From NCBI GenBank assembly GCA_035529795.1, contig DATKVZ010000034.1, forward strand, positions 92,547 to 156,546: DNA of 64,000 bases, in the 5' to 3' direction. Within the stretch, counting starts at the first letter, position 1. Each line of letters opens with the position of its first letter. The position numbers and the translations under genes are program-made. Below the pieces are notes generated by a model. The model did not search any database. It worked only from the letters and a program-made list of their open reading frames with translations, and had not been told where the DNA came from. Below are positions 2,171 through 59,429 of this stretch, one piece after another. The DNA comes from Gallionella sp. (lineage in GTDB: Bacteria > Pseudomonadota > Gammaproteobacteria > Burkholderiales > Gallionellaceae).

Positions 2171-3088
2171 ATGCCACGCACTCTCCAATCCCTCTTGACA
2201 CAAGACAAAGTCACGCTGGAATCCACGCTATCGCTGGATGCCGGTACGGCGCGCATCGAGGTGCAGATGCTGTTGCAGCATACGCTGGGCGTTTCGCGCG
2301 CGTATCTGTTGGCGCATCCAGAACAGGTATTAGACGGGGCACAGGCTACGGCCTATCGTGCATTATTGCAGCGCCGTCTGGCGGGTGAGCCGCTTGCCTA
2401 TATCCTCGGCGAGCGCGAGTTCTTCGGGTTGAATTTCAAAATCACACCCGCGACGTTGATTCCGCGCCCCGACACCGAGTTGCTGGTAGAGCTGGCGTTG
2501 GCGCGGATTCCTGAACAACACCCCTCACCCGGCCTTACGGCCACCCTCTCCCGCTTGCGGGAGAGGGGCTGGGGGAGAGGAGGTTTATTTCGTGTACTCG
2601 ATCTCGGCACCGGTAGCGGTGCGATCGCGCTTGCCATCGCGCATGCGCGGCCGGATGCAGAAGTGACGGCGGTGGATGCGTCGCCGGAGGCCTTGGAAGT
2701 GGCGCGCGACAATGCGCAGCGGCTGAACATCAGCAACGCGCGACTGCTGCGCAGCGACTGGTTTTCCGCGCTGCCGGGTGAGCGTTTCGATCTGGTCGTT
2801 GCCAATCCGCCCTACATCGCCGATGGTGACGCACATCTCGCGCAGGGCGATCTGCGCTTTGAGCCGCGTACGGCGCTGGCTTCTGGCACGGACGGGCTGG
2901 ACGACATCCGCCGCATCGTCGCGGGTGCGAAAAGGCATCTCAATGCCGGTGGCTGGCTGCTGTTCGAGCATGGCTACGACCAGGCCGGGCAAGCACGGGC
3001 ACTGCTTTATGCGGCGGGGTTTGCCGAGGTGTTTTCGGCGCGCGACCTGGCGGGAATCGAGCGGGTCAGCGGCGCCACGATTCCCTGA
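2171..3088 (+). CDS. prmC: Release factor glutamine methyltransferase PrmC/HemK with ~21-aa palindrome-derived insertion
   Basis: GEPLAYI, LIPRPDTE, VLDLGTGSG and NPPY motifs. Confidence 0.95.
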   Translation: MPRTLQSLLTQDKVTLESTLSLDAGTARIEVQMLLQHTLGVSRAYLLAHPEQVLDGAQATAYRALLQRRLAGEPLAYILGEREFFGLNFKITPATLIPRPDTELLVELALARIPEQHPSPGLTATLSRLRERGWGRGGLFRVLDLGTGSGAIALAIAHARPDAEVTAVDASPEALEVARDNAQRLNISNARLLRSDWFSALPGERFDLVVANPPYIADGDAHLAQGDLRFEPRTALASGTDGLDDIRRIVAGAKRHLNAGGWLLFEHGYDQAGQARALLYAAGFAEVFSARDLAGIERVSGATIP

Positions 3089-3140
3089 CCGGATTATTTG
3101 TCAGCGCATGGCCTTTCCGGCATAATTCACCCGCCGTTCA

Positions 3141-3323
3141 GACCAATGGGAGAGCGTGTCAGCCAGCGTCGTTTCAACGACCCTGACACCGCCGAAGGCG
3201 CAACACCCGCAACCGCTCAGGCTCACGAACTATTGGTACAGGCAAATCTGGAGAGCGTTGGATTACCAACCACCGAAGGGGCACACAACGCGAGTTGTAA
3301 TCTCTCAGGTACCAAAGACAGAT
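3141..3323 (+). ncRNA. Tandem glycine riboswitch (two aptamers)
   Basis: Two GGAGAG...CCGAAGG.GCA...CTCAGG units (about 3141-3237 and 3245-3323) directly upstream of gcvT. Confidence 0.92.
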
Positions 3324-3326
3324 GGG

Positions 3327-3359
3327 GCGCAGCGCAGTTGCGCTGCGTCTTTTTCTTTT
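3327..3359 (+). terminator. Intrinsic terminator-like expression platform of the glycine riboswitch
   Basis: gcgcagcgc-agtt-gcgctgcgt stem followed by a T-rich tract, 13 nt before the gcvT ATG. Confidence 0.65.
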
Positions 3360-3372
3360 CCGGAAAATTGAC

Positions 3373-4461
3373 ATGACACTCAAGCAAACTCCGCTCAATG
3401 CAGCACACCGCACAATGGGCGCGAAGATGGTCGATTTCGGCGGCTGGGACATGCCGGTGAACTACGGTTCGCAAATCGACGAACATCATCAGGTACGCAA
3501 CGACTGCGGCATGTTTGATGTATCACACATGCGCACATTGGACATTAAGGGTAAGGGGGTACGCGACTTTTTGCGTTATTTGCTGGCGAACAACGCCAAC
3601 AAACTCACTACACCCGGCAAGGCACTGTATTCCTGCATGCTGAGCCCGGACGGTGGCGTGATCGACGATCTCATTATTTACTTCATGAGCGAACAGTGGT
3701 TCCGCATCGTGGTCAATGCGGGCACGGCGGACAAGGACATCGCGTGGATGAGGCAGCAGGCGGCACAGCATGCGCCGCAGCTCGCCATCATCTCGCGTGA
3801 CGACTTGGCGATGGTCGCGGTGCAGGGGCCGAATGCGCGCGCCAGGGTATGGCAAGTGCTGCCAGAGACCCGTACGGCTACCGAAGGTTTGCAGAACTTC
3901 CAGGCTACCGATTGCGGCGAATATTTCATTGCGCGCACCGGTTACACCGGTGAAGACGGCTTCGAAATCATGCTACCAAAAGAAAAAGTGGAGGGACTCT
4001 GGCACGCGCTGAACAAGGCGGGTGTAAAACCCATTGGCCTTGGCGCGCGCGATACGCTGCGCCTCGAAGCAGGTATGAATTTGTACGGGCAGGATATGGA
4101 CGAAAGCGTCGGACCGCTTGAATCCGGCCTTGCGTGGACGGTGGACCTGCAGAGTGAGCGCGACTTCATCGGCAAGGCCGCCCTGCTCGCCAACCCGCCA
4201 ACCCGCAAGCTGGTCGGGCTGGTGTTGCTGGATCGCGGGATACTGCGCGGCCACCAGCGTGTGCATACCGCGCACGGCGAAGGCGAGATTACCAGTGGCA
4301 GTTTTTCGCCCACTCTGGAAAAATCCATCGCGCTGGCGCGTGTGCCGAAAGAAGTACAGGTCGGCGACCAGGTACAGGTGGCGATTCGCGATAAAATGCT
4401 GGCGGCAAAAGTGGTGAAGTATCCGTTCGTGCGCAATGGGAAAGCAGTCGTTAGCGGTTAG
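3373..4461 (+). CDS. gcvT: Glycine cleavage aminomethyltransferase T
   Basis: [40 protein letters not shown]. Confidence 0.97.
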
Positions 4462-4484
4462 TTCAAACCGCACAGCGACGAAAC

Positions 4485-4531
4485 CAACTAACAACTAACA
4501 ACTAACAACTAACAACTAACAACTAACAACT
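4485..4531 (+). repeat. Heptamer tandem repeat (CAACTAA) x6.7
   Basis: Six perfect units plus CAACT, abutting the gcvH RBS (GGAGA 4532-4536). Confidence 0.95.
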
Positions 4532-4541
4532 GGAGATTCAA

Positions 4542-4931
4542 ATGAGCAACCCGAGCAATCTGAAATACACCGCCTCCCACGAATGGATCCGAAGCGAAGC
4601 GGACGGCACCATCAGTATCGGTATTACGCAACACGCGCAGGAAGCGCTGGGTGACATGGTGTTTGTCGAAACCCCGGCAGTGGGTCGCAAGCTCAAAACT
4701 GGGGAAGAGTGCGTTGTGGTGGAATCGGTCAAAGCCGCTGCGGACGTATACGCACCGGTGAGCGGCGAGGTGGTGGCGGTAAATAGTGAACTTGATAGCA
4801 CGCCGGAAGCCATTAACGCCGACCCGTATGCTGCGTGGATATTCCGTATGAAGCCGGACAACGCGGCGGATGTCACCGCACTGATGGATGCGGCGGCGTA
4901 TCAGGCCGTCGTGGACAGCGAAGCCCATTAG
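4542..4931 (+). CDS. gcvH: Glycine cleavage H protein
   Basis: HEW...GIT.HAQ..LGD, lipoyl-lysine motif VESVKAA. Confidence 0.97.
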
Positions 4932-4935
4932 GTGA

Positions 4936-5064
4936 AGTAGTTATTAGACGTAAGTTGTTAGTCAAATCCGCGAGCGGACTACACCAACTAACTACTATTA
5001 TGTAACAACTACTTCGCACAACTTTTATTTTTAACTTCCGACTAACGTCTAGCAACTACCAACT
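4936..5064. repeat. Inverted degenerate heptamer-repeat element
   Basis: Left arm gtagtta-ttagacg-taagttg-ttagtc is complementary to right arm gactaa-cgtctag-caactac (one unit fewer). Confidence 0.7.
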
Positions 5065-5069
5065 GCCCC

Positions 5070-6581
5070 ATGCCCTTTATCCCCCACACCGAGCAAGATA
5101 TTACAGCGATGCTCGCCAGCATCGGCGCAAAAGATATCAACACGCTGTTCGATGAAATTCCTGCCGCGCTGAAAAGCGGCAAGCTCACTGCTATTGGTGA
5201 CGGCCTGAACGAGATGCAGGTATCGCGCCTGATGCATGAACGTGCCGCGCAGGATAGCCAACCGCTCAATTTCATTGGCGCGGGTGCCTACGAGCACCAC
5301 ATCCCCGCTGCTGTCTGGGAAATCGTCACGCGCGGTGAGTATTACACCGCCTACACACCGTATCAGGCCGAGGCCAGCCAGGGCACACTGCAAACGCTGT
5401 ACGAGTACCAGACCATGATCGCGTCGTTGACCGGTATGGATGCATCCAATGCCAGCCTTTATGACGGCGCATCCGGCTTGGCAGAAGCGATCCTGATGGC
5501 GGTGCGCGCGCACAAGACTTCGCGCCGTGTGTTGCTGCCCGCCACCGTCAGCCCGCTGTATCGCAGCGTGGTGCGCAGCATCGTCAAATTGCAAAACATC
5601 GAACTGATAGAAATCCCGTTCGATCCCACCACCGGTACTATTGATCTCAAGGCGCTGCAACAATACGCCGGCAGCGACCTTGCCGCACTAGTCATCCCGC
5701 AGCCGAATTTTTTCGGCGCATTGGAAGATGTCGATGCGCTGACCGACTGGGTGCACGCACAAAATGCGCTGGCGGTCGCTTTGGTCAATCCGGTTTCGCT
5801 CGCTCTGCTGAAAGCGCCGGGTAACTGGGGAAGCCCCTCTCCTCAATCCTCTGATAAAACAACTAGCCATTTGACTACGCCTGCAAGCGGGCAAGTCACT
5901 GGTTATCCCGCAGGCGGGAGAGGAGGCGAACGTGAAGTGGGGCAAGCAGGTATTTTGTCGCAAGACAAAAACTCGCAAAATCAATTGTTGATTCCCGGCG
6001 CGGATATCGCGGTCGGCGACGGTCAGCCGCTCGGCGCGCCACTGTCCAGCGGTGGCCCGTATTTCGGCTTCATGTGCTGCAAGCAGGCGCTGGTGCGCCA
6101 GATGCCGGGGCGCATCATCGGTCGCACCGTGGATATGGATGGCAAGCCGGGCTTCACGCTGACGCTACAGGCCCGCGAGCAGCACATCCGCCGCGCCAAG
6201 GCGACTTCCAATATTTGCAGCAACCAGGGATTGATGGTGGCTGCAGCCACCATTCACATGGCATTGCTCGGTGCAGACGGTCTGCGCCGCGTCGCCGCAA
6301 CGTCATATACCAACACACAAACACTGCTGGAAAAATTGTGCGCCATCCCCGGTGTAAAACCGGCGTTTGGCACACCCAGTTTCCACGAGGCGGTAGTGCA
6401 ATTACCCAAACCAGCCGCCGCAGTATTGGCTAGAATGGAAGCGCAGGATGTGCTTGGTGGCTATGATCTTTCCACGCACTATCCGCAATTGGGCAATGCG
6501 ATTCTGGTATGCGCTACCGAAACCAAAACGGTGGCCGACCTGCAACGCTGTGCCGACACACTGCAATCTGTCCTCAACTAA
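5070..6581 (+). CDS. gcvPA: Glycine decarboxylase subunit 1 with ~55-aa insertion
   Basis: [26 protein letters not shown]; 503 aa. Confidence 0.95.
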
Positions 6582-6598
6582 CTCAGGAGAATTTCAAA

Positions 6599-7099
6599 AT
6601 GAGTACCGTCAAATTAAAAGGCAACACCGTCAACCTGCTCGGCGATTTTCCCCAAGTGGGCCAGTCCGCACCGGTGTTTACGCTGGTGGACAAAGATCTC
6701 AAGGATGTCACGCTGGACAATTTTGTCGGCAAACGCAAGGTGCTGAATATCGTGCCGAGCCTCGACACTGCGGTGTGCGCCACGTCTACACGAAAATTCA
6801 ACGAAGCGGCCAGCAAACTCAACAATACCGTGGTGCTGGTAATCTCAGCCGACCTGCCGTTCGCCATGAACCGCTTCTGTGTTGCCGAAGGGCTGAACAA
6901 CGTCGTCACACTGTCGCTAATGCGTGGGCGCGAATTCATGCGCAACTACGGTGTGGAGATTGCCGATTCCGGCCTGCGCGGCGTCGCCGCACGCGCCGTA
7001 GTGGTGCTTGATGAAAATAATAAAGTGACCTACACCGAGCTGGTGCCGGAGATCACGCAGGAGCCAAACTACGATGCGGCGCTGACAGCGTTAAAATAA
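6599..7099 (+). CDS. tpx: Thiol peroxidase (atypical 2-Cys peroxiredoxin)
   Basis: [18 protein letters not shown]; AGGAG upstream of ATG 6599. Confidence 0.93.
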
Positions 7100-7103
7100 A
7101 AAC

Positions 7104-7190
7104 CGTCATTCCCGCGCAGGCGGGAATTCAGCAGTATAAAAATGCTTTTTTGTTTAAACCTATTAGATTCCCGCCTGCGCGGGAATGGCG
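7104..7190. repeat. Inverted pair of ATTCCC-N8-GGGAAT (dRS3-like) palindromes
   Basis: attcccgcgcaggcgggaat (7108-7127) and attcccgcctgcgcgggaat (7167-7186). Confidence 0.85.
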
Positions 7191-7215
7191 AAATCTGGAC
7201 TTGAGGAATAATGCC

Positions 7216-8700
7216 GTGCTGATTTTCGAACGCTCCCGCCCCGGCCGCCGCAATGCGGCGCAAGCTCCGAACCACCTTGTAGCGGCCAGCGGCCCTTCGG
7301 CTGAGCTCAGTGCAGACATTCCCGCCGCGCTGTTGCGTCAGGATCAGCCACTGTTACCGGAAGCCTCGGAGATGGATGTGGTGCGTCATTACACCGGGCT
7401 GTCACAGAAGAATTTTTCCATCGATACGCATTTCTATCCGCTCGGCTCCTGCACCATGAAATACAACCCGCGCGCCTGCAACACGCTGGCGATGCTGCCT
7501 AACTTTCTGGCACGCCATCCGCTCGCACCGGAATCCACCGGCCAGGGCGTACTGGCCTGTCTGCATGATTTGCAGGAAATCCTCAAGGGCGTAACCGGTA
7601 TGGCAGGTATCTCGCTTGCGCCGATGGCGGGCGCGCAAGGCGAATTCGCCGGCATCGCGATGATCCGCGCCTATCATGATGCGCGTGGCGACACCGCGCG
7701 CAATGAAATCATCGTGCCGGATGCGGCACACGGCACCAACCCGGCCACGGCGGTGATGTGCGGCTATACCGTGAAGGAGATTCCGACCAACGCGAACGGC
7801 GACGTGGATCTCGATGCACTGCGCGCCGCCACCGGACCGCAGACTGCCGGGCTAATGCTCACCAATCCTTCCACCCTGGGTGTGTTTGAGAAACGTATTC
7901 AGGACATTCAAAAAATTATCCACGACGCAGGCGGCCTGCTGTATTACGACGGCGCCAATTTGAATGCGATTCTCGGCAAGGTCAAGCCGGGTGACATGGG
8001 GTTCGACGTGATCCACATGAACCTGCACAAGACCTTCTCCACGCCGCACGGCGGCGGTGGGCCGGGCGCAGGTGCGGTGGGGGTGGCACAGCGCCTGCTG
8101 CCGTTTCTGCCGCTACCGGTAGTCGCAAAGCAAGACGAAACTTATCGTTATTTAACCGAAGCCGACCTGCCGCAATCCATCGGCCATCTATCCGCCTTCG
8201 CGGGTAATGTTGGTGTTCTGCTGCGCGCCTATGTGTATGCGCGCATGCTCGGCGCGCAGGGCATGCTGCGTGTCGCCGAATTCGCCACGCTGAATGCCAA
8301 CTATATGATGGCGGAATTGCACAAGGCCGGTTTCACCGTCGCCTTTCCGCAACGCCGCGCCAGCCACGAATTTATCATTTCGATGAAACCGCTCAAGGAT
8401 GCCACCGGCATCTCCGCAATGGACGTGGCGAAACGCCTGCTGGACAAGGGCTTCCACCCGCCCACCACCTACTTCCCGATGCTGGTGCCGGAATGTCTGC
8501 TGATCGAGCCGACCGAAACCGAGTCGAAAGAGACACTGGATGCCTTTATCGCCGCACTGAAGGAAATCCGTGACGAGGCTTATGCCTCGCCGGAACTGGT
8601 AAAGAACGCACCGCACACCATGCCGGTGCGCCGCCTCGATGACGTAAAAGCCGCGCGTGAACTCGACCTGACCTGGAAGCCAGCCGTATACACGGCATGA
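7216..8700 (+). CDS. gcvPB: Glycine decarboxylase subunit 2
   Basis: [30 protein letters not shown] (PLP lysine); GTG 7216 with GAGGA upstream. Confidence 0.95.
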
Positions 8701-8748
8701 TTTTGATATCCCGCCGGTGATTGAAGCAATTCGAATTCGCGGCGATAT

Positions 8749-8776
8749 TTGTCATTTAGCACGTTACCGGTATAAT
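8749..8776 (+). promoter_or_regulatory. Sigma70-like promoter of tRNA-Phe
   Basis: TTGTCA-16nt-TATAAT followed by a GC-rich discriminator. Confidence 0.6.
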
Positions 8777-8835
8777 GCGCCGCTTCCTGAGCCGGCCGAT
8801 TTGTTCGGCAAGGGAGAAAATGCAGCAAAGAAAAT

Positions 8836-8985: not shown

Positions 8986-9019
8986 AGACAAGGATAATTT
9001 CCTTGACCCAAACATTAGT

Positions 9020-13031: not shown

Positions 13032-13128
13032 CTCCCTCTCCCGCTCGCGGGATAACCAGCGACTTGGTCGCCGTATTGGGGCGGCCTAGTCGAATGGCTA
13101 GTAGTTCTATCAGAGGGTTGGGGAGAGT
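13032..13128 (-). repeat. Composite CCCTCTCCC-family palindrome with nested GATA...TATC core
   Basis: Reverse complement aligns along its length with 5834-5926 inside gcvPA. Confidence 0.85.
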
Positions 13129-13132
13129 GGAT

Positions 13133-16576: not shown

Positions 16577-17146
16577 ATGCCAATTAACCAAGCGAACAGT
16601 CGCAAATTCCAGTCCGGCAACCTGATACTGGTGGGTATGATGGGTTCCGGAAAGACCACTATCGGGCGAATGCTGGCCAAGCATCTGGACAAGGTATTTG
16701 TGGATAGTGATGCTGAAATTCAGCAGCGCACCGGCGTGACCATCACGCATATATTCGATATCGAAGGTGAGGCCGGTTTTCGCCAGCGCGAGACTGCCGC
16801 CCTTTGCGATTTGGTCGGACGCAGCAGCATGGTTTTGGGGACGGGCGGCGGTGCGGTACTGGTGGAGCAAAACCAAACAATGCTGCAACAGAATGGCATC
16901 GTCATTTACCTGAGGGCGAGTGTGCATGATTTGTGGCAGCGTACCCGGCATGACCGCAATCGTCCGCTGCTGCAAACTGCGGATCCGCATGCAAAATTGA
17001 CCGAGCTACACCATCAGCGCGACCCGCTTTATCAGAAGGTTGCGGATATTGTTATCCAGACCGGCAGGCAAAGTGCGCATACCCTGGTGCTGCATTTAGT
17101 AAGTGAAATAGAGGCCTTCATTTCACGCAGGTCGGATCAAGCGTAG
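16577..17146 (+). CDS. aroK: Shikimate kinase
   Basis: LVGMMGSGKTT, EGEAGFR, TGGG, RPLL; start uncertain. Confidence 0.93.
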   Translation: MPINQANSRKFQSGNLILVGMMGSGKTTIGRMLAKHLDKVFVDSDAEIQQRTGVTITHIFDIEGEAGFRQRETAALCDLVGRSSMVLGTGGGAVLVEQNQTMLQQNGIVIYLRASVHDLWQRTRHDRNRPLLQTADPHAKLTELHHQRDPLYQKVADIVIQTGRQSAHTLVLHLVSEIEAFISRRSDQA

Positions 17147-17206
17147 CGATCCGACGAACTTGGTAGCGGGATTATTTGTCGGATCGCTACGCTTGATCCG
17201 GCCTAC
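17127..17206. repeat. GTAG-type REP doublet (REPIN-like) overlapping the aroK stop
   Basis: gcaggtcggatcaagcgtagcgatccgac and its near-perfect inverse gtcggatcgctacgcttgatccggcctac. Confidence 0.85.
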
Positions 17207-17224
17207 AGAAAATTGACTGGAAAG

Positions 17225-19711: not shown

Positions 19712-19810
19712 GGCGGGTCTCTCCGCATTGTGGGTTGGTGAATCTGGTCAGGTCCGGAAGGAAGCAGCCACAGCCGATTACTGCAAGTGCCGGGGGTAAG
19801 GCTCGCCTCC
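19712..19810 (+). ncRNA. ffs: SRP (4.5S) RNA
   Basis: CAGGTCCGGAAGGAAGCAGC helix-8 signature, complementary ends GGCGGG...CTCGCC, upstream of dnaX. Confidence 0.93.
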
Positions 19811-36071: not shown

Positions 36072-36110
36072 CCTCCTCTCCCGCATGCGGGAGAGGATTG
36101 AGGTGAGGGA
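36072..36110. repeat. CCCTCTCCC-family palindrome (intergenic)
   Basis: cctctcccgc-at-gcgggagagg + attgaggtgaggg tail. Confidence 0.85.
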
Positions 36111-36169: not shown

Positions 36170-36880
36170 ATGGTCGATGTCGCCGTTGTAGATTACGGAA
36201 TGGGTAACTTGCGCTCGGTCGAACAGGCTTTGCGCACGGTAGCGCCCGATGCCGAAATCGTCGTTAGCGACGATGCCGGGGTGATTGCGGATGCCGGGCG
36301 TGTGGTATTTCCCGGACAAGGCGCAATGCCGGACTGCATGCACGAACTGGAAGCACGGGGCTTGCGCAACGCCGTACTGCAAGCCGCGCGTAACAAACCT
36401 TTTCTTGGTATCTGCATCGGCCTGCAAATGCTGTTCGAACACAGCACCGAGGGCAATGTGGCGGGTCTTGGTGTTTTGCGTGGCGAGGTGGTGCGCTTTG
36501 CTTCCAACCTGAAAGATGCGCAGGGCAACAAACTCAAAGTGCCACATATGGGCTGGAACCAGGTACATCGAGTTCTCAGGCCTCTCCCTCCGGGGAAGGA
36601 TACGATTGCCCTTCCCTCCTCTGGGGAAAAGTTGGATAGCCGGCTTGGGGGCGAACATCCGCTGTGGGCAGGTATTCCGCAGGATGCGCGCTTCTACTTT
36701 GTGCATAGCTATCATGTGCGCCCGCTGGACGAATCGCTGGTGCAGGCCACCAGCGATTACCCGCAGCCCTTTGCCTGCGCGGTAGCGCGAGACAATTTAT
36801 TCGGGGTGCAATTTCACCCTGAAAAAAGCCAAACAGCAGGGCTGAAACTGCTGCAAAACTTTGTGCAATGGAACCCTTAA
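36170..36880 (+). CDS. hisH: IGP synthase glutaminase subunit with ~25-aa insertion
   Basis: [19 protein letters not shown]. Confidence 0.95.
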
Positions 36881-43589: not shown

Positions 43590-43650
43590 CCCTCACCCGC
43601 CCTGTCGGGCACCCTCTCCCGCTTGCGGGAGAGGGGATGGGGAGAGGGGG
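43590..43650. repeat. CCCTCTCCC-family palindrome (intergenic), close relative of the prmC insert
   Basis: ccctcaccc-gccctgtcgggc-accctctcccgcttgcgggagagggg-atggggagaggg. Confidence 0.9.
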
Positions 43651-44484: not shown

Positions 44485-44524
44485 TCCCTCGCCCCTTAGG
44501 GGAGAGGGATTGAGGGAGAGGGGT
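44485..44524. repeat. CCCTCTCCC-family palindrome (intergenic)
   Basis: ccctcgccccttaggggagaggg-attgagggagagggg. Confidence 0.8.
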
Positions 44525-44728
44525 TTAGCCCCCGCCCACCGCCACGACCACTTCCAGCCGGTCGCCCTCCGCCAATTGCTGCGTAGCAAACTGGCTGCGC
44601 GGCACGATCTCGCCGTTGCGCTCCAGCGCGACACGCTTGCCGAATAAGCTCATCTCCTCGATGAGTGCAGCGATGCTGATGGCTTGCGGAAACTGGCGTA
44701 ATGCGCCGTTGATGCTGACTGTGATCAC
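44525..44728 (-). CDS. thiS: Sulfur carrier ThiS
   Basis: NGEIVPRS, C-terminal VGGG. Confidence 0.95.
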
Positions 44729-44790: not shown

Positions 44791-44864
44791 GCGGGTGTAG
44801 TTCAATGGTAGAACGGCAGCTTCCCAAGCTGCATACGACGGTTCGATCCCGTTCACCCGCTCCA
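44791..44864 (+). tRNA. tRNA-Gly (CCC)
   Basis: 74-nt cloverleaf, anticodon arm GCAGC-TTCCCAA-GCTGC, CCA end. Confidence 0.97.
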
Positions 44865-44926
44865 GTTCGTTGCTCCGGCAGCGTGCTTTTATAGAATCCG
44901 CTTCGATTCGAACAAGGGGGCGCACC

Positions 44927-45136
44927 ATGTTGAGCATAGAAAACCTGACACGTACTGAAAAACTGCGCATGCTGGAGGCAATCTGGGATGACCTAGCACG
45001 CGATCCGGCAGCGCTTATCCCACACGAATGGCATGCACAGGCACTCAAGGATGCCGAACGTGCCCATGCGGAAAACCAGGCCGGTTTTGTGTCCTGGGAT
45101 ATCGCCAAGAAGAAGCTGCGCGACGGCATGTCATGA
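44927..45136 (+). CDS. Putative addiction-module antitoxin component
   Basis: L...EKL...EAIWDDL...W-rich 69-aa ORF overlapping the downstream toxin gene. Confidence 0.75.
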   Translation: MLSIENLTRTEKLRMLEAIWDDLARDPAALIPHEWHAQALKDAERAHAENQAGFVSWDIAKKKLRDGMS

Positions 45137-45426
45137 AGATCGAGATTCTGGATATCGCAATGGGCGATCTCCAGGCCGGTCAGCAGTTTTATGAGCGGCA
45201 GCAGGAAGGGCTGGGTGCTTATTTTCTGGACTCGCTGTTTTCCGACATCGATGCGCTGCTGCTTTACGCTGGAATCCACCAGCAATTTTTCGGCTATTGC
45301 CGTGCGCTCTCGAAGCGGTTTCCTTACGCAATCTACTACCGTGTGTGTGGTGAAACCATCCAGGTTTGGCGTGTGCTGGATTGCCGACAAAAACCTTCGC
45401 GCATAGTCGGTGCGCTACGCGCTTGA
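45133..45426 (+). CDS. ParE/RelE-family toxin
   Basis: A..DL.....FYE.Q..GLG..F...RFPY.IYY...V.RVLD.R. Confidence 0.8.
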   Translation: MKIEILDIAMGDLQAGQQFYERQQEGLGAYFLDSLFSDIDALLLYAGIHQQFFGYCRALSKRFPYAIYYRVCGETIQVWRVLDCRQKPSRIVGALRA

Positions 45427-45491
45427 TCTCGCTCCAGTTCTCGCACCGTTTTTCGGAGAGGGGGTGGCCGCGAGGCTGCCTCCTTACCCTC

Positions 45492-45527
45492 CTGCATACG
45501 ACGGTTCGATCCCGTTCACCCGCTCCA
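45492..45527 (+). repeat. Exact 36-bp copy of the tRNA-Gly 3' end (attR-like)
   Basis: ctgcatacgacggttcgatcccgttcacccgctcca, identical to 44829-44864. Confidence 0.97.
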
Positions 45528-48983: not shown

Positions 48984-49347
48984 CTTCGTCTCCTTGATCG
49001 AATCGGGGACATCCCCCGCGACCAAGGATCGAAGATTTCTACGTGAATTGCAGCAAGGAAAAGCGGAAGTTGAAGAAGGGACGTTCGGGGCAACGCGCCA
49101 CCGCTTTAGCGGTTTAGTTCAACGTAAAGTAGACAGCCTAAAACGCGCCTGCAAAGGCACCTTCAGGGTGTATAAACTGGAAAGTATTTCGCAAGCCATT
49201 GTCTTTAAAGTCCGTGCAAATGTAGCGCACCCTAATTCCTTTGAAAATGGCACCATCCCTCGCCCAAGTAACGGGTTACTCCAAACACTCTGGAACACAC
49301 TAGCAGCAATACCTCTCCTTAACAATATGCCAAAAGGCCTAAGGGTC

Positions 49348-50064: not shown

Positions 50065-50238
50065 TTCCAGTTCAATTTTGAATGTATGTGTCTCATCAAA
50101 CGGCCTGTTTAATTTTGAAATGCCTTCGTTCAAGTAACACGGGGCTCCAAACACTCTGGAACACACACTAGCAGCAAAATCCCCTAAAAACCATATACCA
50201 AAATACATAGGCAATTCGGAATCTAAAGAGTATCCGAT

Positions 50239-51595: not shown

Positions 51596-54500
51596 ATGTC
51601 GCAACCATCCTTCATCCATCTCCGGCTACACAGCGAATACTCCATTTCGGATGGCATGGTGCGCGTGAACGAAGCAGTTGCGGCAGCGCAAGGCGATGGT
51701 ATGCCGGCGCTGGCATTGACCGACCTGAACAACGTGTTCGGTCTGGTGAAGTTTTATCAAAGCACGCGCAGCCAGGGCATCAAGCCGATTGTCGGTTGCG
51801 ACGTATTCATCAGTAACGATGTCGACCGCGACCGTCCACACCGTCTGCTGTTGCTGTGCCAGTCGCGCAAGGGCTATTTATTGCTGTGTCGTCTGCTCAG
51901 CCGCGCCTATCTGGAGAACCAGCATCGCGGCCGCGCCGAATTGCGCCGCGAGTGGTTTCATGATGGCACGACAGGGTTGATCGCATTGTCCGGCGCGCAT
52001 CTCGGCGATGTCGGCTGCGCGCTGCTGTCCGGCAATGCGCAACAGGCCGAACAGTTTGCGCGGGAGTGGGCGGAGCTGTTCAACAACCGTTATTACCTCG
52101 AAGTGCAGCGCGGCGGATTCGCCGACGAAGAGCATTACATCCACGCGACAACGCAGCTTGCCGCCAAGCTCGGCCTGCCGGTGGTCGCCACGCATCCGGT
52201 GCAGTTCCTCAAGGCGGACGATTTCAAGGCACACGAGGCGCGCGTGTGCATCTCCGAGGGCTATGTGCTGAACGACAAGCGTCGTGCCAAGCAATTCACT
52301 GTGCAGCAATACTTCAAGACGCAGGCCGAGATGGCGGCGCTGTTTGCCGACCTGCCGGAAGCGTTGCAGAACAGCGTGGAAATCGCGCGTCGCTGTAATC
52401 TTTCTCTGGTGCTGGGTAAGCCGTGTCTGCCGGATTTCCCCACGCCCAACGGTGAAACACTGGAAAACTATCTGCGCGCCGAAGCCGAGCGCGGCCTGGT
52501 GCTGCGCATGGCGGCACGCTATCCCGACGCAGCAGAGCGCGCCGCGAAGCTGCCGGAGTATCAGCAACGGCTGGTTTTCGAAACAGACACCATCATCAAG
52601 ATGGGTTTCCCCGGCTACTTCCTGATCGTGGCGGATTTCATCCGCTGGGCGAAGGAGAACGGCGTGCCGGTCGGCCCGGGGCGCGGCTCCGGTGCGGGTT
52701 CGCTGGTGGCCTATTCACTCGGCATCACCGATCTCGATCCGTTGCGCTATGGATTGCTGTTCGAGCGCTTCCTTAACCCCGAGCGCGTCTCGATGCCCGA
52801 CTTCGACGTGGATTTCTGCCAGGACGGGCGCGAACGCGTCATCGGCTATGTGAAGAACAAATACGGCGCGGAATGTGTATCGCAGATCGCCACCTTCGGC
52901 ACCATGGCGTCCAAGGCGGTGATCCGCGATGTCGGGCGTGTCATGGATTTTCCGTACGGGCTGTGCGATAGCCTGTCCAAGGCGATTCCGCTGGAGGGTG
53001 TGAAACCGGTGTCACTCGCCAAGGCACGCGCGATGGAACCGGAGATCAACGCCATCGCCGAGCGCGAGGAAGGTGTGCCGGAGCTGCTGGAACTGGCCGC
53101 ACGGCTCGAAGATTTGACACGCAACGTTGGCATGCATGCCGGCGGCGTGCTGATCGCGCCGGGACAGCTCACCGATTTTTGCCCGCTGTATTGCGCCGAC
53201 AGTACGGCCAGCGTGGTCAGTCAGTTCGACAAGGACGATGTCGAGGCGATCGGCTTGGTGAAGTTCGATTTTCTTGGGCTGCGCACGCTGACCATCATCG
53301 ATTGGGCGGCACGCTACATTAGAGGATTCAGGATCCAGGATTCAGGAATCGGGGATCAGGATTCAGGATTTTCGATAGAAAATATTCCGCTTGACGATCA
53401 GCCGACCTACGAACTACTCAAGGCCGCCAACACCACCGCCGTGTTCCAGCTCGAATCACGTGGCATGAAGGATATGTTGAAACAGGCCCGGCCGGATTGC
53501 TTCGAGGACATTATCGCGCTGGTGGCGCTGTATCGCCCCGGCCCGATGGACCTGATTCCGGATTTCGTGCGGCGCAAGCATGGCGAAAAATTCCACTATC
53601 CGCACCCTGCCGTCGAGTCGGTGCTGCGTGAGACCTACGGCATCATGGTCTACCAGGAGCAGGTGATGCAGATGGCGCAGATCGTCGGCGGCTACAGCCT
53701 CGGCGGTGCCGACTTGCTGCGCCGCGCGATGGGCAAGAAAAAAGCCGAAGAAATGGCTGAACAGCGCGAGATTTTCGTCGCGGGCGCGCTCAAGGGCGGC
53801 ACGTCAAAGGAACAGGCCGGCGAGCTGTTCGACCTGATGGAAAAATTTGCCGGCTACGGTTTCAACAAGTCGCACGCCGCCGCCTATGCACTGGTGGCCT
53901 ACCAGACTGCCTATCTCAAGGCGCACCATCCTGCGGCGTTCATGGCGGCGACGCTGTCGGCGGACATGGACAACACCGACAAGGTACGCATCTTCTATCT
54001 CGACGCCTTACAGCAGAGTTTGCGCATCCTGCCGCCGGACGTGAACAGCTCGGACTACATGTTCTCGCCTGTGGACGAACAGACTATCGCTTACGGCCTG
54101 GGCGCAATCAAGGGTACCGGGAAAGCGGCCATTGAGAACCTCACTCAAGCACGTGAATCCGGAGCATTCAAAGACCTGTTCGATTTCTGCCGTCGCGTGG
54201 ACAAGCGTATCGTCAATCGGCGCACTATCGAGGCGCTGATCCGCGCCGGCGCGTTCGACAGCATCAACGATCATCGCGCCTGCCTGATGACAACGCTGGA
54301 TGCCGCGCTGGCAAGTGCCGACCAGCAGGCGCGCGCGGCAAACCAGAACAGCCTGTTCGGCAACGACGAAGCGGATGTTGCGCTGACAGTCAAATATGCC
54401 GATGCACCGCGTTGGCGATTGCGCGAACAGCTGGTGCATGAGAAGACCAGCCTCGGTTTCTACCTCAGCGGCCACCCCTATCAGGAATACGAGGCGGAAC

Positions 54501-55090
54501 TGGCAAATTTCATCAAGGTGCGGCTGGGCAATCTCACACCGCAATTCGTGGGCAAAACGGAAGGCGGCGGCAACGGCGGGCCGGGAGCGCGGCGCGGCGT
54601 TGCCGTGGTGCTGGCGGGTATCGTGGCCGGGCTGCGCATCCAGCAGACACGGCGCGGACGCATGGCAGTGGTGACGCTGGATGATGGTGGCGCGCAAGTT
54701 GAGATGACTGTATTTAGCGAGGAATACGAGCGCAGCAAACCGTGGATACGCGAGGATGAACTGCTGGTGGTGCGCGGCAAGGCCAGCATGGACGAGTATT
54801 CCGGTAACGTGCGCGTGAGCGGCGAAGAATTGTTCGACTTCGCCTCGGCACGTTCACATTTTGCGCAGCAGCTGGCGTTGCGCTGTAACGGCGGGGTCAG
54901 CGTTGCACAGCTGAAGAAATTATTTACTCCCTATCGCGACGGAAAATGTCCGGTGCAGATTCACTACCGCAGCCACGACGCGAGTTGCCAGCTGTGTCTC
55001 GGTGAGCCGTGGCAGTTAACCCTGCATGACGATTTGCTGCACGATTTGCGCGAAACATTGCAGGCGGAGAACGTGAAGGTGGTGTATTGA
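51596..55090 (+). CDS. dnaE: DNA polymerase III alpha subunit
   Basis: PHP domain HLRLHSEYS, GRGSGAGS, PDFDVDF, KFDFLGL, FNKSH. Confidence 0.97.
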   Translation: MSQPSFIHLRLHSEYSISDGMVRVNEAVAAAQGDGMPALALTDLNNVFGLVKFYQSTRSQGIKPIVGCDVFISNDVDRDRPHRLLLLCQSRKGYLLLCRLLSRAYLENQHRGRAELRREWFHDGTTGLIALSGAHLGDVGCALLSGNAQQAEQFAREWAELFNNRYYLEVQRGGFADEEHYIHATTQLAAKLGLPVVATHPVQFLKADDFKAHEARVCISEGYVLNDKRRAKQFTVQQYFKTQAEMAALFADLPEALQNSVEIARRCNLSLVLGKPCLPDFPTPNGETLENYLRAEAERGLVLRMAARYPDAAERAAKLPEYQQRLVFETDTIIKMGFPGYFLIVADFIRWAKENGVPVGPGRGSGAGSLVAYSLGITDLDPLRYGLLFERFLNPERVSMPDFDVDFCQDGRERVIGYVKNKYGAECVSQIATFGTMASKAVIRDVGRVMDFPYGLCDSLSKAIPLEGVKPVSLAKARAMEPEINAIAEREEGVPELLELAARLEDLTRNVGMHAGGVLIAPGQLTDFCPLYCADSTASVVSQFDKDDVEAIGLVKFDFLGLRTLTIIDWAARYIRGFRIQDSGIGDQDSGFSIENIPLDDQPTYELLKAANTTAVFQLESRGMKDMLKQARPDCFEDIIALVALYRPGPMDLIPDFVRRKHGEKFHYPHPAVESVLRETYGIMVYQEQVMQMAQIVGGYSLGGADLLRRAMGKKKAEEMAEQREIFVAGALKGGTSKEQAGELFDLMEKFAGYGFNKSHAAAYALVAYQTAYLKAHHPAAFMAATLSADMDNTDKVRIFYLDALQQSLRILPPDVNSSDYMFSPVDEQTIAYGLGAIKGTGKAAIENLTQARESGAFKDLFDFCRRVDKRIVNRRTIEALIRAGAFDSINDHRACLMTTLDAALASADQQARAANQNSLFGNDEADVALTVKYADAPRWRLREQLVHEKTSLGFYLSGHPYQEYEAELANFIKVRLGNLTPQFVGKTEGGGNGGPGARRGVAVVLAGIVAGLRIQQTRRGRMAVVTLDDGGAQVEMTVFSEEYERSKPWIREDELLVVRGKASMDEYSGNVRVSGEELFDFASARSHFAQQLALRCNGGVSVAQLKKLFTPYRDGKCPVQIHYRSHDASCQLCLGEPWQLTLHDDLLHDLRETLQAENVKVVY
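53324..53372 (+). repeat. Seven degenerate GGATTCA heptamers in frame in dnaE
   Basis: ggattca ggatcca ggattca ggaatcg gggatca ggattca ggatttt. Confidence 0.9.
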
Positions 55091-55106
55091 TGCGGCGGGA
55101 AGCAGG

Positions 55107-55382
55107 ATGCGTGTCAGGGTGCTGATGTCGGGCAGTCATCCGGAGTATCGGCTGGTGCTGCCGGTCGAAACGGAAACAAACCGTATCTCGGCAACCATGC
55201 GGGCGGCAATCGAACATCTCGGCGAGTGGCAGGAAAGGTCACAGGATGATCTGGACAAAAACCGGCCGGAGCATCGCGAGGCGATGACGGATATCGCCGC
55301 CCATGGCGCTTTCCTGTGGATGGTATCCGCCAACTACACCGGTCGGATCGAGGTGCTGCCGTCCGAACAACTCACTACTTGA
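55107..55382 (+). CDS. Hypothetical protein
   Basis: 91-aa ORF filling the dnaE-sulP gap; no recognised motif. Confidence 0.45.
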   Translation: MRVRVLMSGSHPEYRLVLPVETETNRISATMRAAIEHLGEWQERSQDDLDKNRPEHREAMTDIAAHGAFLWMVSANYTGRIEVLPSEQLTT

Positions 55383-57048
55383 GCAACACCTTTGCGCGTG
55401 TCAGCGCGTCATCCAGGTTTGCCACTACATTTTCCGTACCCATCTTCTCGAAGAACCCGGCCTGATACATCAGAAAATACGGCTGGGTATGCGGGCCGCA
55501 CAAAATCAGGTGTTTGCCGCGCTTGCGCAGCTTGCCGTGCAAATGCTCCAGCGTATGCAGCGCGCTGGCATCCATGCTGATGACCTCGTGCATTTTCAGA
55601 ATCAGTACGTCCGGATCAGTATGGCTCTGCTGCAGGATGGTTTCCAGTTTGTCCGCTGCGCCGAAAAACAGTGCGCCGAATACGCGATAAATAACCACGC
55701 CTTTTGGTACAGCCTTGCTCAGCAGCGTGGCTTCACTGTCATCCGGCATGGGCGAACGTTCCGAGACACTGACACTGGTCAGCTCGGTGATGCGTTGGAT
55801 GAAGAAGAAAACCGCAATGAACATGCCGACTTCGACTGCCACGGTAAGACCAAAAACCACCGTGAGTAAAAACGTCACCACCAGCACCGCGCTGTCACTG
55901 AGCGGGTATTTTCTCAGTGTGCGAAAACCTTCCCATTCACCCATGTTGATGGAAACTACCAGCAGAATGGCGGAGAGTGTGGCGAGCGGAATATAGACGG
56001 CGAGCGGTGCCGCGATGAGCACAATAATGAGCAGGGTGAGCGCGTGCACGATGCCGGAAATCGGAGTGGAGGCACCCGCGCGCACGTTGGTGGCGGTGCG
56101 TGCAATGGCGCCGGTGGCGGGTAAGCCACCGAAGAACGGTGTGACGATGTTGGCAATGCCTTGTGCAACCAGCTCCTGGTTAGGGTCATGCTTGTCGTCG
56201 ATCATGCCGTCTGCCACCGCCGCCGAGAGCAGCGATTCGATGGCACCGAGCAGCGCAATAGTCATGGCCGGTGCCATCAGATGCCGCAGTGCGGCAAAGG
56301 TGAATTCCGGCGGATCGAAGGCCGGCAAGCCCTGTGGAATGCCGCCGAAACGCGTGCCGATGGTTTCCACCGGCAGGTTGAACAGCGCGACGATGATTGT
56401 GCCGAGCACCAATGCCACGATGGGCGAAGGCAGCTTCTGCGCCCAGACCTTCGGGTAATGCCAGATCAGCAACGTCGAACCGATGGCCAGCAGCAGCGTG
56501 ACGATATCCACCGTGGAAGCTGCATGGTAGATGACCTGCAGCTTGTGCACGAAGTCGGCGGGCATCACCTCGATCTGCAAGCCGAAAAATTCTTTCACCT
56601 GGCTAAGGATGATTAATACCGCAATGCCGTTGGTGAAACCGATGATCAGCGGGCGCGGGAAAAACTTGATGAGATTGCCCATACGCGTCAATCCCATTGC
56701 TACCAACATCACGCCGGCCATCATGGTGCAGATCAGCAAATTGGCGTAGCCGTATTGCTGAATGATGTTGTACACGATGACAATGAATGCGCCGGTCGGC
56801 CCGCCGATTTGCACACGCGAGCCACCCAGTGCAGAGATGATGAAACCGGCGATGATCGCGGTGAAGATGCCCGCCTCCGGCTTCGCACCGGAGGCGATGG
56901 CGAAAGCAATGGCCAGTGGCAGAGCAATGACGCCAACAGTAATGCCGGCGGTGATGTCGGTGGAGAAGCGCGCCTTGTTGTAGCCGCGCAAAGCGTCAAT
57001 CAGACGCGGACGAAAATACTGCGAAAACTTCGATGATAAATTACTCAT
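55375..57048 (-). CDS. SulP/SLC26 anion permease with STAS domain
   Basis: GITVG..ALPL.IAF, GGS..QIGGPTG, ELVAQG..N, STAS LFFGAA...D.S. Confidence 0.94.
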   Translation of the reverse strand: MSNLSSKFSQYFRPRLIDALRGYNKARFSTDITAGITVGVIALPLAIAFAIASGAKPEAGIFTAIIAGFIISALGGSRVQIGGPTGAFIVIVYNIIQQYGYANLLICTMMAGVMLVAMGLTRMGNLIKFFPRPLIIGFTNGIAVLIILSQVKEFFGLQIEVMPADFVHKLQVIYHAASTVDIVTLLLAIGSTLLIWHYPKVWAQKLPSPIVALVLGTIIVALFNLPVETIGTRFGGIPQGLPAFDPPEFTFAALRHLMAPAMTIALLGAIESLLSAAVADGMIDDKHDPNQELVAQGIANIVTPFFGGLPATGAIARTATNVRAGASTPISGIVHALTLLIIVLIAAPLAVYIPLATLSAILLVVSINMGEWEGFRTLRKYPLSDSAVLVVTFLLTVVFGLTVAVEVGMFIAVFFFIQRITELTSVSVSERSPMPDDSEATLLSKAVPKGVVIYRVFGALFFGAADKLETILQQSHTDPDVLILKMHEVISMDASALHTLEHLHGKLRKRGKHLILCGPHTQPYFLMYQAGFFEKMGTENVVANLDDALTRAKVLLK

Positions 57049-57131
57049 ACAGGCTGTGTCAGCGCCTCCTGGATTCAAAAGTCATGAATGAAATAATCAG
57101 CGCCGGTCTCGGCTGGCGTTGTAAACAAGTA

Positions 57132-59429
57132 TTACTTGATACGCATACCCGGTTGCGCGCCCTCGTCCGGGCCGAGAATGAACAACCCCGGTGTTTCACC
57201 GGAAGCCGCCAGCACCATGCCTTCGGACAGACCAAACTTCATCTTGCGCGGTGCAAGATTGGCGACCATCACCGTCATGCGGCCCTTGAGTTGTTCCGGA
57301 TCATAAACCGACTTGATACCTGCGAACACGGTGCGCGGTTTTTCTTCGCCGATGTCCAGCGTCAGTTTTAACAGTTTGTCCGCGCCTTCCACATGTTCCG
57401 CGTTGACGATTTTCGCCACGCGCAGGTCAATCTTGCTGAAGTCATCGATGGAGATGGTTTCGGCGATGGGGCTAATATTCTTCCCCTCTCCCGCTGGCGG
57501 GAGAGGGGCTAGGGGAGAGGGTGCGTGCTGCTGGTGTTCGGCATGGCGTTGCGGGGAGTGTGATTCGGTCATGGGTTTCAGACTTTCCTGGTTGGCGGCG
57601 ACCATGGCCTCGATCAGTTTGGGATCAAGACGGGTCATAAGATGTTGGTAGGGGTTGATGGTGTGATCCTGCAACAGTGTTTGAGCATCACCCCACTGAA
57701 GTGGTGAAATATTCAGGAAAGATTCTACGCTTTCAGCCAATTTTGGCAGCACCGGCTTGAGGTACAAAGTAAGCAGGCGAAAAGCATTAAGTGCAATTGA
57801 ACAGCCGATATGGATTCTGGCTGAGTTCTCTTCAAAATTCTTCGCCAATGTCCACGGTGCCAACCGGTCAACATAAGTGTTGCACATATCGGTTAGTTCC
57901 ATGATGCGCCTGATGGCTTTGGCAAAATCCCGTTGCTCATAAATTTCAGCCAATTGAAATGCGCTATCCTGTAACTCGGGGAGCAAATCAACCAAGGTCA
58001 ATTCACCGGGAAGCCGGATGGCTTCATTGATGAGCATTTGCTCGTTCATGTTTATCAAATCACCGATTGCGGCAGTTTTGTCAGCATCTCCGAGTTGCTC
58101 TTTAAGCCAGTGATCTACCAGTACAGTCGACAGTTTTCCATCAAAACGCTTTGCTATAAACCCCGCGCACCGGCTCGCAATATTGATATATTTCCCGATC
58201 AGATCGCTATTCACTCTCGCCACAAAATCTTCGAGATTGAGGTCGATGTCCTCCATCGTGCCATTTAGTTTGGCCGCATAGTAGTAGCGCAAATATTCAG
58301 TGTTGCCGATGTGATCGATGTAGCTGCGCGCGGTGATGAAGGTACCCCGCGATTTGCTCATCTTTTCGCCGTTCACGGTGAGGAAGCCGTGCGCGAACAA
58401 TTTGGTCGGGGTGCGAAAGCCGGCGTGTTGCAACATCGCCGGCCAAAACAGCGCGTGGAAATACAGAATATCCTTGCCGATGAAGTGGTACAGCTCGGTA
58501 CCAGAACCTTGTTTCCAGTAGTCGTCGAAAACCAACCCCTCCCCAGCCCTCCCCTTGCCTGCGATCTCCTCCCCTGACAAGGGGAGGTCGGGAGGGGTTT
58601 GCTTGTTGCACAGTTGTTTGAAACTGCCCATGTAACCGACCGGCGCATCCAGCCATACGTAAAAATATTTACCCGGTGCGTCGGGGATTTCGAAGCCAAA
58701 ATAAGGTGCGTCGCGCGAGATGTCCCAGTCGGAAAGCTTGTTTTCGCCTTCCGCTCCCAGCCACTCCTGCATCTTGTTCGCGGCCTCGGGTTGCAGCGTG
58801 CCGCTGCGTGTCCATTCGCGCAGAAATTTCTGGCAGCGCGGATCGGAGAGTTTGAAGAAATAATGGTCGGAATTGCGCCGCTCCGGCTGCGCACCGGACA
58901 CGGCTGAATACGGGTTGATCAGTTCGGTGGGCGCATAAGTCGCACCGCATGCTTCGCAGTTGTCGCCGTACTGGTCTTTGGCGTGGCACTTCGGACATTC
59001 GCCCTTGATGAAACGATCCGGCAGGAACATTTGCTTGGCCGGGTCGTAGAACTGCTCGATAGAGCGTACCTCGATCAACTTTGCCTCGTCCCTGAGCCTG
59101 AGATAAATCTGTTCGGCAAACTCGCGGGTTTCGTCTGAATGAGTGGAGCCGTAGTGGTCGAATTCGACATGGAATGCGGCAAAATCGGCCTGGTGCTCTT
59201 CAGCAACCCGCGCGATCAGTTGCTCCGGCGTGATGCCTTCCTTTTCGGCGCGCAGCATGATCGGTGTACCGTGGGTATCGTCGGCGCACACATAATGACA
59301 GGTGGTATCGGCCTGCATTTTCTGGAAGCGCACCCAGATGTCGGTCTGGATATATTCGACCAGATGGCCGAGATGGATACTGCCGTTGGCATAGGGCAGC
59401 GCAGAGGTGACGAGGATTTTGCGGCTCAT
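57132..59429 (-). CDS. metG: Methionyl-tRNA synthetase with three insertions
   Basis: PYANG..HLGH, Zn knuckle, KMSKS, C-terminal tRNA-binding domain; 765 aa. Confidence 0.97.

Follow-up and report, generated by a model that had tools for sequence, protein, structure and literature searches.

The window analysed here is a 64,000-nt stretch of a Gallionella sp. metagenome genome (GCA_035529795.1, contig DATKVZ010000034.1, positions 92,547-156,546 of the forward strand), whose source organism, an iron-oxidising member of the Gallionellaceae (Betaproteobacteria), is known via metagenomes and turns up in soil, sludge, landfill and biofilm runs. Several of its genes and spacers carry copies of a short repeat, the intrastrand triplex motif, which in other genomes also lies at both ends of genes for DUF559 nucleases. 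Four host genes are concerned, prmC (2171-3088, + strand; TIGR03534, 303 bits), gcvPA (5070-6581, +; NF001696, 596 bits), hisH (36170-36880, +; TIGR01855) and metG (57132-59429, -; NF001100, 929 bits). These NCBIfam profile matches bear out the gene names given in the initial annotation, and all four open reading frames (ORFs) are intact and full length. In comparison with the family models, PrmC has about 19 extra residues, GcvPA 56 and HisH about 25, and the metG product MetRS has 765 residues against a family profile of 676 positions. Further copies occupy intergenic positions downstream of ettA and in the hisB-hisH, thiG-trmB and thiS-thiG spacers.

Triplex-motif copies within and between genes

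With 11 occurrences on the window's two strands, the exact sequence CCCTCTCCC exceeds the expectation of 0.21, and 0 of 100 shuffles reach this number; for the full hairpin CCCTCTCCC-N5-35-GGGAGAGGG, 3 occurrences compare with an expectation of 0. A search for the three-arm pattern (C-arm, loop of 3-6, G-arm, spacer of 2-5, G-arm, with at most one mismatch per arm) finds five canonical copies, at 2544-2581, 36074-36109, 43612-43648, 44486-44522 and 57484-57521, and none in 30 shuffles. The palindrome family of at least nine copies described in the initial annotation is therefore real and enriched, except that its hisH member is doubtful. Coding sequence makes up about 88% of the overlapping locus L001, summed over the gene table; 4-5 of the 10 copies lie inside genes, which is fewer than random placement predicts, yet far from the "always intergenic" reported for E. 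coli. In all five canonical motifs both G-arms lie on the + strand regardless of the strand of the host gene, a bias that is not significant alone; given the positive GC skew across the window, the G-rich side may be on the leading strand.

Two copies adopt an extended form, in which an additional 5' CCCTCACCC arm and a small hairpin precede the canonical motif. The first lies in prmC (2522-2582, +), where it reads outer CCCTCACCC, small hairpin, CCCTCTCCC-GCTTGC-GGGAGAGGG and third G-arm, and encodes 20 residues in frame (aa 118-138). The second (43590-43650, +) fills the thiG-trmB spacer 41 kb away and is 91% identical to the prmC copy over 53 nt. As single strands, the two fold into Y-shaped three-way junctions with z scores of -4.0 (prmC) and -4.7 (thiG-trmB), computed for Watson-Crick pairing only and against shuffled sequence, as are all z scores given below. 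In line with this fold, the small hairpin shows compensatory changes between the two copies (GGCC..GGCC versus GCCC..GGGC). Two further intergenic copies, one in the hisB-hisH spacer (36074-36109, +; z = -3.5) and one between the thiS stop and the thiG start (44486-44525, +), conform to the three-arm pattern.

Two long forms, one in gcvPA (5834-5924, -) and one intergenic, 12 nt past the ettA stop (13034-13130, +), are mutual reverse complements with 85-86% identity. Each is a canonical motif whose G-arm is split (GGGA^GAGGG) by a conserved nested element of about 62 nt, located at 5850-5911 (-) and 13053-13114 (+), respectively. The nested element has the form TAACCAG[C/T]GACTTG, a variable hairpin with compensatory changes, and CTAGTCGAATGGCTAGT.GTT.TATCA; once translated, it gives a signature, "TTSHST...QVAGY", that is found again in orthologues of metG and prmC and in one DUF559 tail. 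It resembles a second-order parasite with the repeat as its target. The element also occurs at about 2400-2470 of locus L209 and in locus L124. In gcvPA, the long form belongs to an in-frame insertion of 168 nt (5831-5998; 56 aa, aa 255-310), which splits the family profile match at aa 254. This insertion continues for a further ~70 nt past the repeat (5925-5998), including a small hairpin, TTTTGTC-GCAA-GACAAAA.

metG contains two copies. A canonical motif on the + strand, opposite to the gene, lies in the linker (57482-57522) and encodes 14 residues in frame (aa 636-650). The second, at 58535-58600 (-), is a variant with the related CCCCTCCC/GGGGAGGG arms and takes the form of a hairpin doublet with a partial deletion (z = -3.4); it encodes 21 residues in frame (aa ~277-299). 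Elsewhere in the gene, the segment for aa 436-487 (about nt 57970-58120) in the anticodon-binding region is hypervariable, with a length and sequence of its own in almost every orthologue, and is unrelated to the repeats. In hisH, an insertion of about 25 aa (36580-36654, +; aa 137-162) splits the profile match into 4-135 and 161-233; it contains a single arm with one mismatch, its fold is not significant (z = -0.3), and it is possibly a decayed copy. Four copies within ORFs are thus firm, those in prmC and gcvPA and the two in metG. An Rfam scan at the gathering threshold matched no family to any repeat of the window or to the nested element.

By their sequence pattern, the window repeats belong to an already known family of intrastrand triplex motifs, TM_ECO/PIT/BoxC, in which PIT elements is reportedly the earlier name, used by Hoyne and Maher, and BoxC is said to be the name of the E. 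coli repeat. That the family had already been published went unrecognised in the initial annotation (PMC4666352). Holder et al. 2015 (NAR) defined TM_ECO as a G/C-rich intrastrand triplex motif, 5'-CCCTCNCCC-N3-6-GGGNGAGGG-N3-GGGNGAGGG, with a 9-nt C-arm, a second loop of ~3 nt and at most one mismatched triplet (PMC4666352), a strict pattern that one copy of the window (2544-2579) satisfies. They counted 3,610 copies in 262 proteobacterial genomes, single or as inverted pairs, and presented circular dichroism (CD) and nuclear magnetic resonance (NMR) data for a stable triplex of the E. coli sequence in vitro; the E. coli loci are highly variable among strains and always intergenic (PMC4666352). 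The window repeats share the sequence pattern, the multiplicity and the variability between relatives. They differ in that some also lie in frame in essential genes, exclusively intergenic placement being a trait described for one species and not an element of the sequence definition, and in that the motif also forms the ends of DUF559 cassettes (see below).

A property of the arms bears on the in-frame copies: all six of their frames are free of stop codons, and stops come solely from loops and spacers; short repeat forms leave 3-5 of the six frames open. The arms encode PSP/PLP/LS peptides (P/S/L) on one strand and GRG/GEG/ER peptides (G/R/E) on the other, and the ORFs remain intact, so that the initial annotation was right in stating that the frame is preserved and that Pro/Gly/Arg/Glu-rich peptides are added. 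Because the arms are stop-free, a copy whose nucleotide count is divisible by three does no more than extend a tolerant loop by a P/G/R/E-rich peptide. Copies may therefore persist in essential genes through their stop-free arms together with selection, which would keep multiple-of-three lengths in surface loops.

The structural context agrees with the location in surface loops and linkers that had been expected. In the predicted structure of PrmC, which has a mean pLDDT of 83, the insert forms a coil of pLDDT below 50, placed between the helix 100-112 and the strand 141-145, a position that in the model connects the last helix of the N-domain to the first Rossmann strand, that is, the two domains. 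The metG linker copy falls in the known flexible inter-domain linker of MetRS, and the copy at 58535-58600 aligns to a gap in the solved MetRS structure 6wq6. The latter alignment was used instead of an AlphaFold model of the window MetRS, which was built from 40 close sequences and was too poor (mean pLDDT 52). Altogether, essential enzymes can gain 13-56 residues from the repeat, and in relatives MetRS gains a whole nuclease domain of 125 residues. For protein evolution, such inserts mark out, in nature, the loops that tolerate insertions; where annotation is concerned, "PSP...GRG/GEG" peptides and overlong orthologues are products of the repeat and not of host function. The inserts and their turnover are also of relevance for genome-stability studies.

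Site occupancy among relatives

The occupied sites vary widely between related species. Among 120 MetRS orthologues of 70-84% identity, the first metG site (after "KQLC.K") is empty in about half, and the others hold at least 6 peptide types, all recognisable as translated repeats of this kind. In the metG linker (before "ISIDDF"), some orthologues have no insert, and others have the short motif, the long form or an entire DUF559 domain. Ferrigenium kumadai is among the relatives with an empty prmC site ("RIPQRGRVLDLG"); elsewhere, at least 8 insert types occupy it. Some of these inserts are reverse-frame (frame -1) translations of the window's own element, e.g. SPPAPLPHAGEGGRQAGRG; the prmC site therefore accommodates the element family in both orientations. 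At the gcvPA site, most relatives read "NWGxKGADIAVG" without an insert, and two loci (L128 and L135) carry a different repeat there. Apparent large gcvPA inserts, seen as tblastn matches of ~2.05-2.12 kb, were rejected, as these matches overrun gcvPA and contain stops, and the site is empty in them. The hisH insert is absent from the closest representative, and other HisH proteins hold unrelated inserts at that position.

Independent data confirm that the copies are present in the organism. An identical PrmC is encoded by an independent ENA assembly, in run X3 one contig spans the prmC copy, and contigs of four runs (X1, X2, X3 and X5) span the metG linker copy; these spanning contigs show 0-5 differences. 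Across the four metagenome runs, contigs from short reads are interrupted at the repeats, where depth is 9- to 10-fold higher, including a ~9-fold higher contig depth over the metG copy at 58535-58600, as expected of a multi-copy element. The inserts in prmC, gcvPA and metG are therefore neither assembly artefacts nor ancient and shared by all relatives, the two findings that would have spoken against the initial annotation; empty sites and intergenic homologues are both present.

Since each coding site is empty in some relatives and variably filled in others, insertion and turnover have occurred repeatedly and, on the scale of genera and families, recently. Inserts thus turn over quickly between related species. 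The strain-level polymorphism envisaged in the initial annotation did not appear, the variation being between species: alleles of at least 99% identity in the four runs include none that is empty.

Inverted triplex motifs form both ends of DUF559 cassettes

The initial annotation stated that repeats of this type often flank DUF559/Vsr-like nuclease genes, and the genes examined bear this out. Six Gallionellaceae MetRS clusters of 875-898 aa carry PF04480 (DUF559) and PF18741 in the linker (6 of the 120 orthologues). The embedded DUF559 match is complete (3-108 of 109 profile positions, 126 bits) and corresponds to a domain of ~125 residues. The proteins stem from several independent JGI, ENA and NCBI assemblies. 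The embedded nuclease is under purifying selection, with a dN/dS of 0.10 between two of the loci (L002 versus L005), equal to that of the adjacent host domain. An intein reading of the insert was ruled out, as these MetRS proteins have no intein/Hint domain.

In the DNA of L002 and L005, an inverted motif lies at both ends of the metG-linker cassette. Specifically, the left end consists of CCCCTCTCCC-loop-GGGAGAGGGG, followed by CT-GGGGGTGAGGG and the ORF, and at the right end the ORF is followed by CCCTCACCCC-TAG and then CCxCTCTCCC-loop-GGGAGAGGGG. The window's own metG linker insert (57482-57522) is arranged as the right end of such a cassette, with C-arm, TAG and hairpin in this order.

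The association was recovered from the side of the repeat as well as from that of the protein. A scan of one genome per species yields at least 120 random hairpin loci; those listed come from Alpha-, Beta- and Gammaproteobacteria, Chloroflexota, Planctomycetota, Cyanobacteria, Acidobacteriota, Verrucomicrobiota and others. A DUF559 ORF adjoins the hairpin in 9 of the 120 listed loci, and 8 of these 9 are flanked on both sides by inverted motifs with their inner arms facing the ORF; in the ninth (L082) the contig ends and only the upstream motif is visible. Two of the nine, in an uncultured betaproteobacterium and a Variovorax, are in-frame metG linker insertions, which brings the relatives with an in-frame DUF559 domain in this linker to eight. 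Conversely, the 120 best homologues of the DUF559 domain, from many phyla, are free-standing and 115-185 aa in length, and the ORF runs into a motif-coded peptide in 47 of these 120 as compared with 0 of 150 HisH controls. Six protein-side loci were inspected, three of them picked because their ORF showed no motif-coded peptide, and all six have the motif at both ends, with a truncated right end in L213.

At the DNA level, the motif adjoins all 18 DUF559 genes examined and lies on both sides in 15. The other three are L213 with its truncated right end, L082 at its contig end, and E. coli ycjD, which has a degenerate hairpin at its stop and a full motif downstream only. The ORF fits tightly between the inner arms, and its start codon lies in or right after the G-arm. 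The inverted triplex motif therefore forms both ends of a compact cassette, hairpin and G-arm, DUF559 ORF, C-arm and hairpin. Cassettes occupy the metG linker in Gallionellaceae, in a further betaproteobacterium and in Variovorax, and many others are intergenic at unrelated sites.

In E. coli K-12, ycjD is the only DUF559 gene in the stretch examined. It ends "...RRSPSP*" in the degenerate hairpin (CCCTCTCCC), and a perfect TM_ECO lies ~165 nt downstream, adjoining fabI. At 3030-3840 of the K-12 fabI-ycjD-sapF locus (L127), a partial duplicate of the ycjD 3' end is followed by the TM_ECO/BoxC unit beside fabI. The gene is accessory, being present in 3,378 of 5,426 complete E. coli genomes.

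A second host gene was encountered among the cassettes. In Methylococcus (GCA_016106025.1; L208, 1700-2700), a motif-ended DUF559 cassette splits hsdM, a gene for type I restriction-modification, between "...AWRGE" and "GYQDIPGFCKS...", leaving three ORFs in different frames. Many DUF559 homologues are labelled hsdM or adenine methyltransferase by JGI, and together this suggests hsdM as a second recurrent target gene.

Several known systems resemble the repeats and cassettes in part. Rickettsia palindromic elements (RPEs) are short palindromic repeats of 100-150 bp, restricted to Rickettsia, which insert in frame in conserved genes, encode surface peptides and are present or absent between relatives; no enzyme is known to be associated with them. 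The analogy drawn in the initial annotation holds for behaviour, namely in-frame insertion into surface segments of conserved genes. The window elements differ in length (36-97 nt), in their Gallionellaceae host, in their assignment to the TM family, made by sequence pattern, and in having a candidate enzyme gene that lies between two copies. REPIN-RAYT systems share with the cassettes a single-copy enzyme gene flanked by inverted dispersed palindromes, many enzyme-less copies and hairpin doublets. However, RAYT is a Y1 HUH (IS200/IS605-type) transposase, whereas the enzyme here is a Vsr-like protein of the PD-(D/E)XK type (PF04480 DUF559 with PF18741), and REPs are extragenic, whereas triplex repeats also lie in frame within genes.

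Homing endonucleases offer a third comparison. Free-standing endonuclease genes in "fractured" genes were reportedly described by Dassa in 2009. The solved structure nearest to the embedded DUF559 domain is 3HRL, an "endonuclease-like protein", which has been grouped with Vsr, DUF559, 3R3P and the Vsr-like (EDxHD) homing endonuclease I-Bth0305I (PMC3424549). The likeness may extend to the reuse of the same position, to judge by the metG linker in three betaproteobacterial lineages and hsdM in Methylococcus. Distinct from homing endonucleases, the DUF559 cassette has no intron or intein and is translated through as a part of MetRS, and its structured ends also exist alone. In the window, Rfam finds no intron.

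Origin of the repeats and further features of the window

Taken together, the window repeats are one family, inserted in frame and between genes and subject to recurrent turnover, and their motif is also that of the ends of DUF559 cassettes; we consider it probable that the window copies are nuclease-less derivatives of such cassettes. Motif copies without a nuclease are far more numerous than the cassettes. Each hairpin being a palindrome in its own right, the left and right hairpins of a cassette repeat one another in direct as well as in inverted orientation. If they slipped or recombined with each other, the ORF would be lost and a single unit would stay behind; inversion, or replacement by other genomic copies, would also be expected. 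The window copies may thus be remnants of deletion between the repeated cassette ends. Alternatively, they may be miniature elements mobilised by a DUF559 nuclease whose gene lies at another place in the genome. Such a nuclease would cut at or near the motif or at a preferred host site, and repair from an element-bearing template would then copy the element in, as in homing; or else an excised form might integrate at a resident hairpin. In general, hairpin- and triplex-prone ends would favour slippage, deletion, inversion and nested insertion.

Several points weigh against a spread of the repeats by the nuclease. tblastn finds no DUF559 gene in the 64-kb window, as the initial annotation had stated. 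The absence of empty alleles at strain level gives no sign of ongoing movement. In a 30-row sample, E. coli genomes without ycjD have fewer detectable copies of the motif than those with it (1-3 versus 2-6), a link that is suggestive only, being confounded by phylogroup. The recurrent filling of sites could reflect recombination among existing copies instead of new insertions. To our knowledge, a PD-(D/E)XK nuclease alone is incapable of strand transfer, so that any spread must use host repair. Finally, no transposase, integrase or other mobility function was reported near the E. coli copies (PMC4666352). Weighing these points, we regard an enzymatic role of DUF559 in the spread of the repeats, which would include mobilisation in trans, as an even chance on the comparisons made here.

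More tentatively still, and slightly on the doubtful side of even, the TM_ECO/PIT/BoxC repeats at large may be the ends and miniature derivatives of pan-bacterial selfish DUF559 cassettes, a nuclease-based counterpart of REPIN-RAYT systems that inserts in frame into essential proteins, remains unspliced in MetRS and repeatedly remodels the surface loops of core enzymes, for example in Gallionellaceae. Two elements of this account are new, the recurrent in-frame colonisation of core enzymes in the Gallionellaceae lineage and the constant association of the triplex motif with DUF559 cassettes, including whole nuclease domains in MetRS. In the literature searched, nothing ties DUF559 to these repeats, and neither the in-frame location nor the DUF559 association appears in the main TM_ECO study (PMC4666352) or in the literature found with its title phrase. 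Triplex-motif (BoxC) repeats number thousands of copies in proteobacteria, cyanobacteria and many further phyla, and that study found no function or mobility gene for them. The constant physical link to a DUF559 gene, including ycjD of E. coli, provides a specific candidate, open to experimental test, for the agent that produces and disperses them. From the same link, DUF559, a very large uncharacterised protein family, gains an initial clue to its function.

The main rival, which we judge unlikely although it deserves serious weight, holds that the motifs are autonomous structural repeats, spread by host slippage, recombination and repair at non-B DNA, and that DUF559 genes are separate selfish lodgers for which the motif is the target and not the end. 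The motifs do act as landing pads, since the unrelated ~62-nt element, a second lodger, is nested inside their arms. Additionally, solo motifs are common at the metG linker of orthologues and the nuclease is rare there (6/120), as would be expected of a nuclease that came into motifs already in place, and motifs outnumber DUF559 genes by 23 to 1 in E. coli K-12. A lodger, however, would not readily account for an ORF packed tightly between the inner arms with its start codon in or just past the G-arm, nor for ends that are always inverted copies with the inner arms toward the ORF. Furthermore, the hairpin variants differ by DUF559 lineage (L031, L080 and L095), although motif variants specific to the host would produce this pattern too.

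A benefit to the host, with the repeats serving as terminators, mRNA stabilisers or attenuators in operons and as recruited flexible linkers in proteins, appears improbable. It would fit the intergenic copies within operons (hisB-hisH, thiS-thiG and thiG-trmB), where REP-like stabilisers act, as well as the retention of the inserts by all strains that are more than 99% identical, and the 100 copies of Enterobacter sp. 638 were guessed to be terminators (PMC2869309). On the other hand, the same sequence lies within ORFs in either orientation and frame, its presence among close relatives is sporadic, the PrmC insert is predicted to be disordered, and earlier work, as cited by Holder et al., had detected neither promoter nor terminator activity in the E. 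coli motifs (PMC4666352). A terminator function in particular was ruled out by the absence of a T-run after the hairpins together with the copies within ORFs.

We give still less credence to the idea that the coding inserts are ordinary lineage-specific low-complexity loops, ancient and static, which merely resemble the intergenic palindromes. The hisH segment is hardly motif-like, and the HisH, GcvPA and MetRS loops hold unrelated insertions in other taxa. Nevertheless, the near-identity of the prmC copy to its distant intergenic counterpart, the gcvPA copy being the reverse complement of an intergenic one, and the empty sites in near relatives contradict this idea for prmC, gcvPA and metG, leaving hisH as the single gene to which it might apply. 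That repeats were misjoined into genes during assembly is hardly credible: contigs do break at the repeats under ~10-fold depth, yet single contigs of independent runs span the prmC and metG linker copies, an independent assembly encodes the identical PrmC, reading frames are preserved, and orthologues in isolate genomes carry such inserts.

The window contains other structured sequences besides the triplex motifs. Two are ordinary features, a tandem glycine riboswitch with two aptamers (3137-3327) upstream of gcvT-gcvH-gcvPA-gcvPB and a bacterial small SRP RNA (19712-19810). The gene gcvH (4542-4931) is bracketed by related 66-nt sequences with (CAACTAA)n heptamer runs (4446-4533 and 4946-5011). 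Two strong palindromes are unrelated to the triplex motif, one before gcvPB (7104-7190) with 24-nt arms ATTCCCGCCTGCGCGGGAAT that are 96% complementary, the other (17120-17213) with 39-nt arms that are 85% complementary. A direct repeat of ~80 nt (76-82% identity) occurs in two neighbouring intergenic regions ~866 nt apart (49257-49335 and 50123-50203). Finally, tRNA-Gly(CCC) (44791-44864) is followed by an islet of ~620 bp with two small antitoxin/toxin-like ORFs (44928-45135 and 45133-45426), beyond which a 45-nt repeat of the tRNA-Gly 3' end lies at 45483-45527; the whole region (44791-45527) bears the signature of a tiny element integrated at a tRNA gene.

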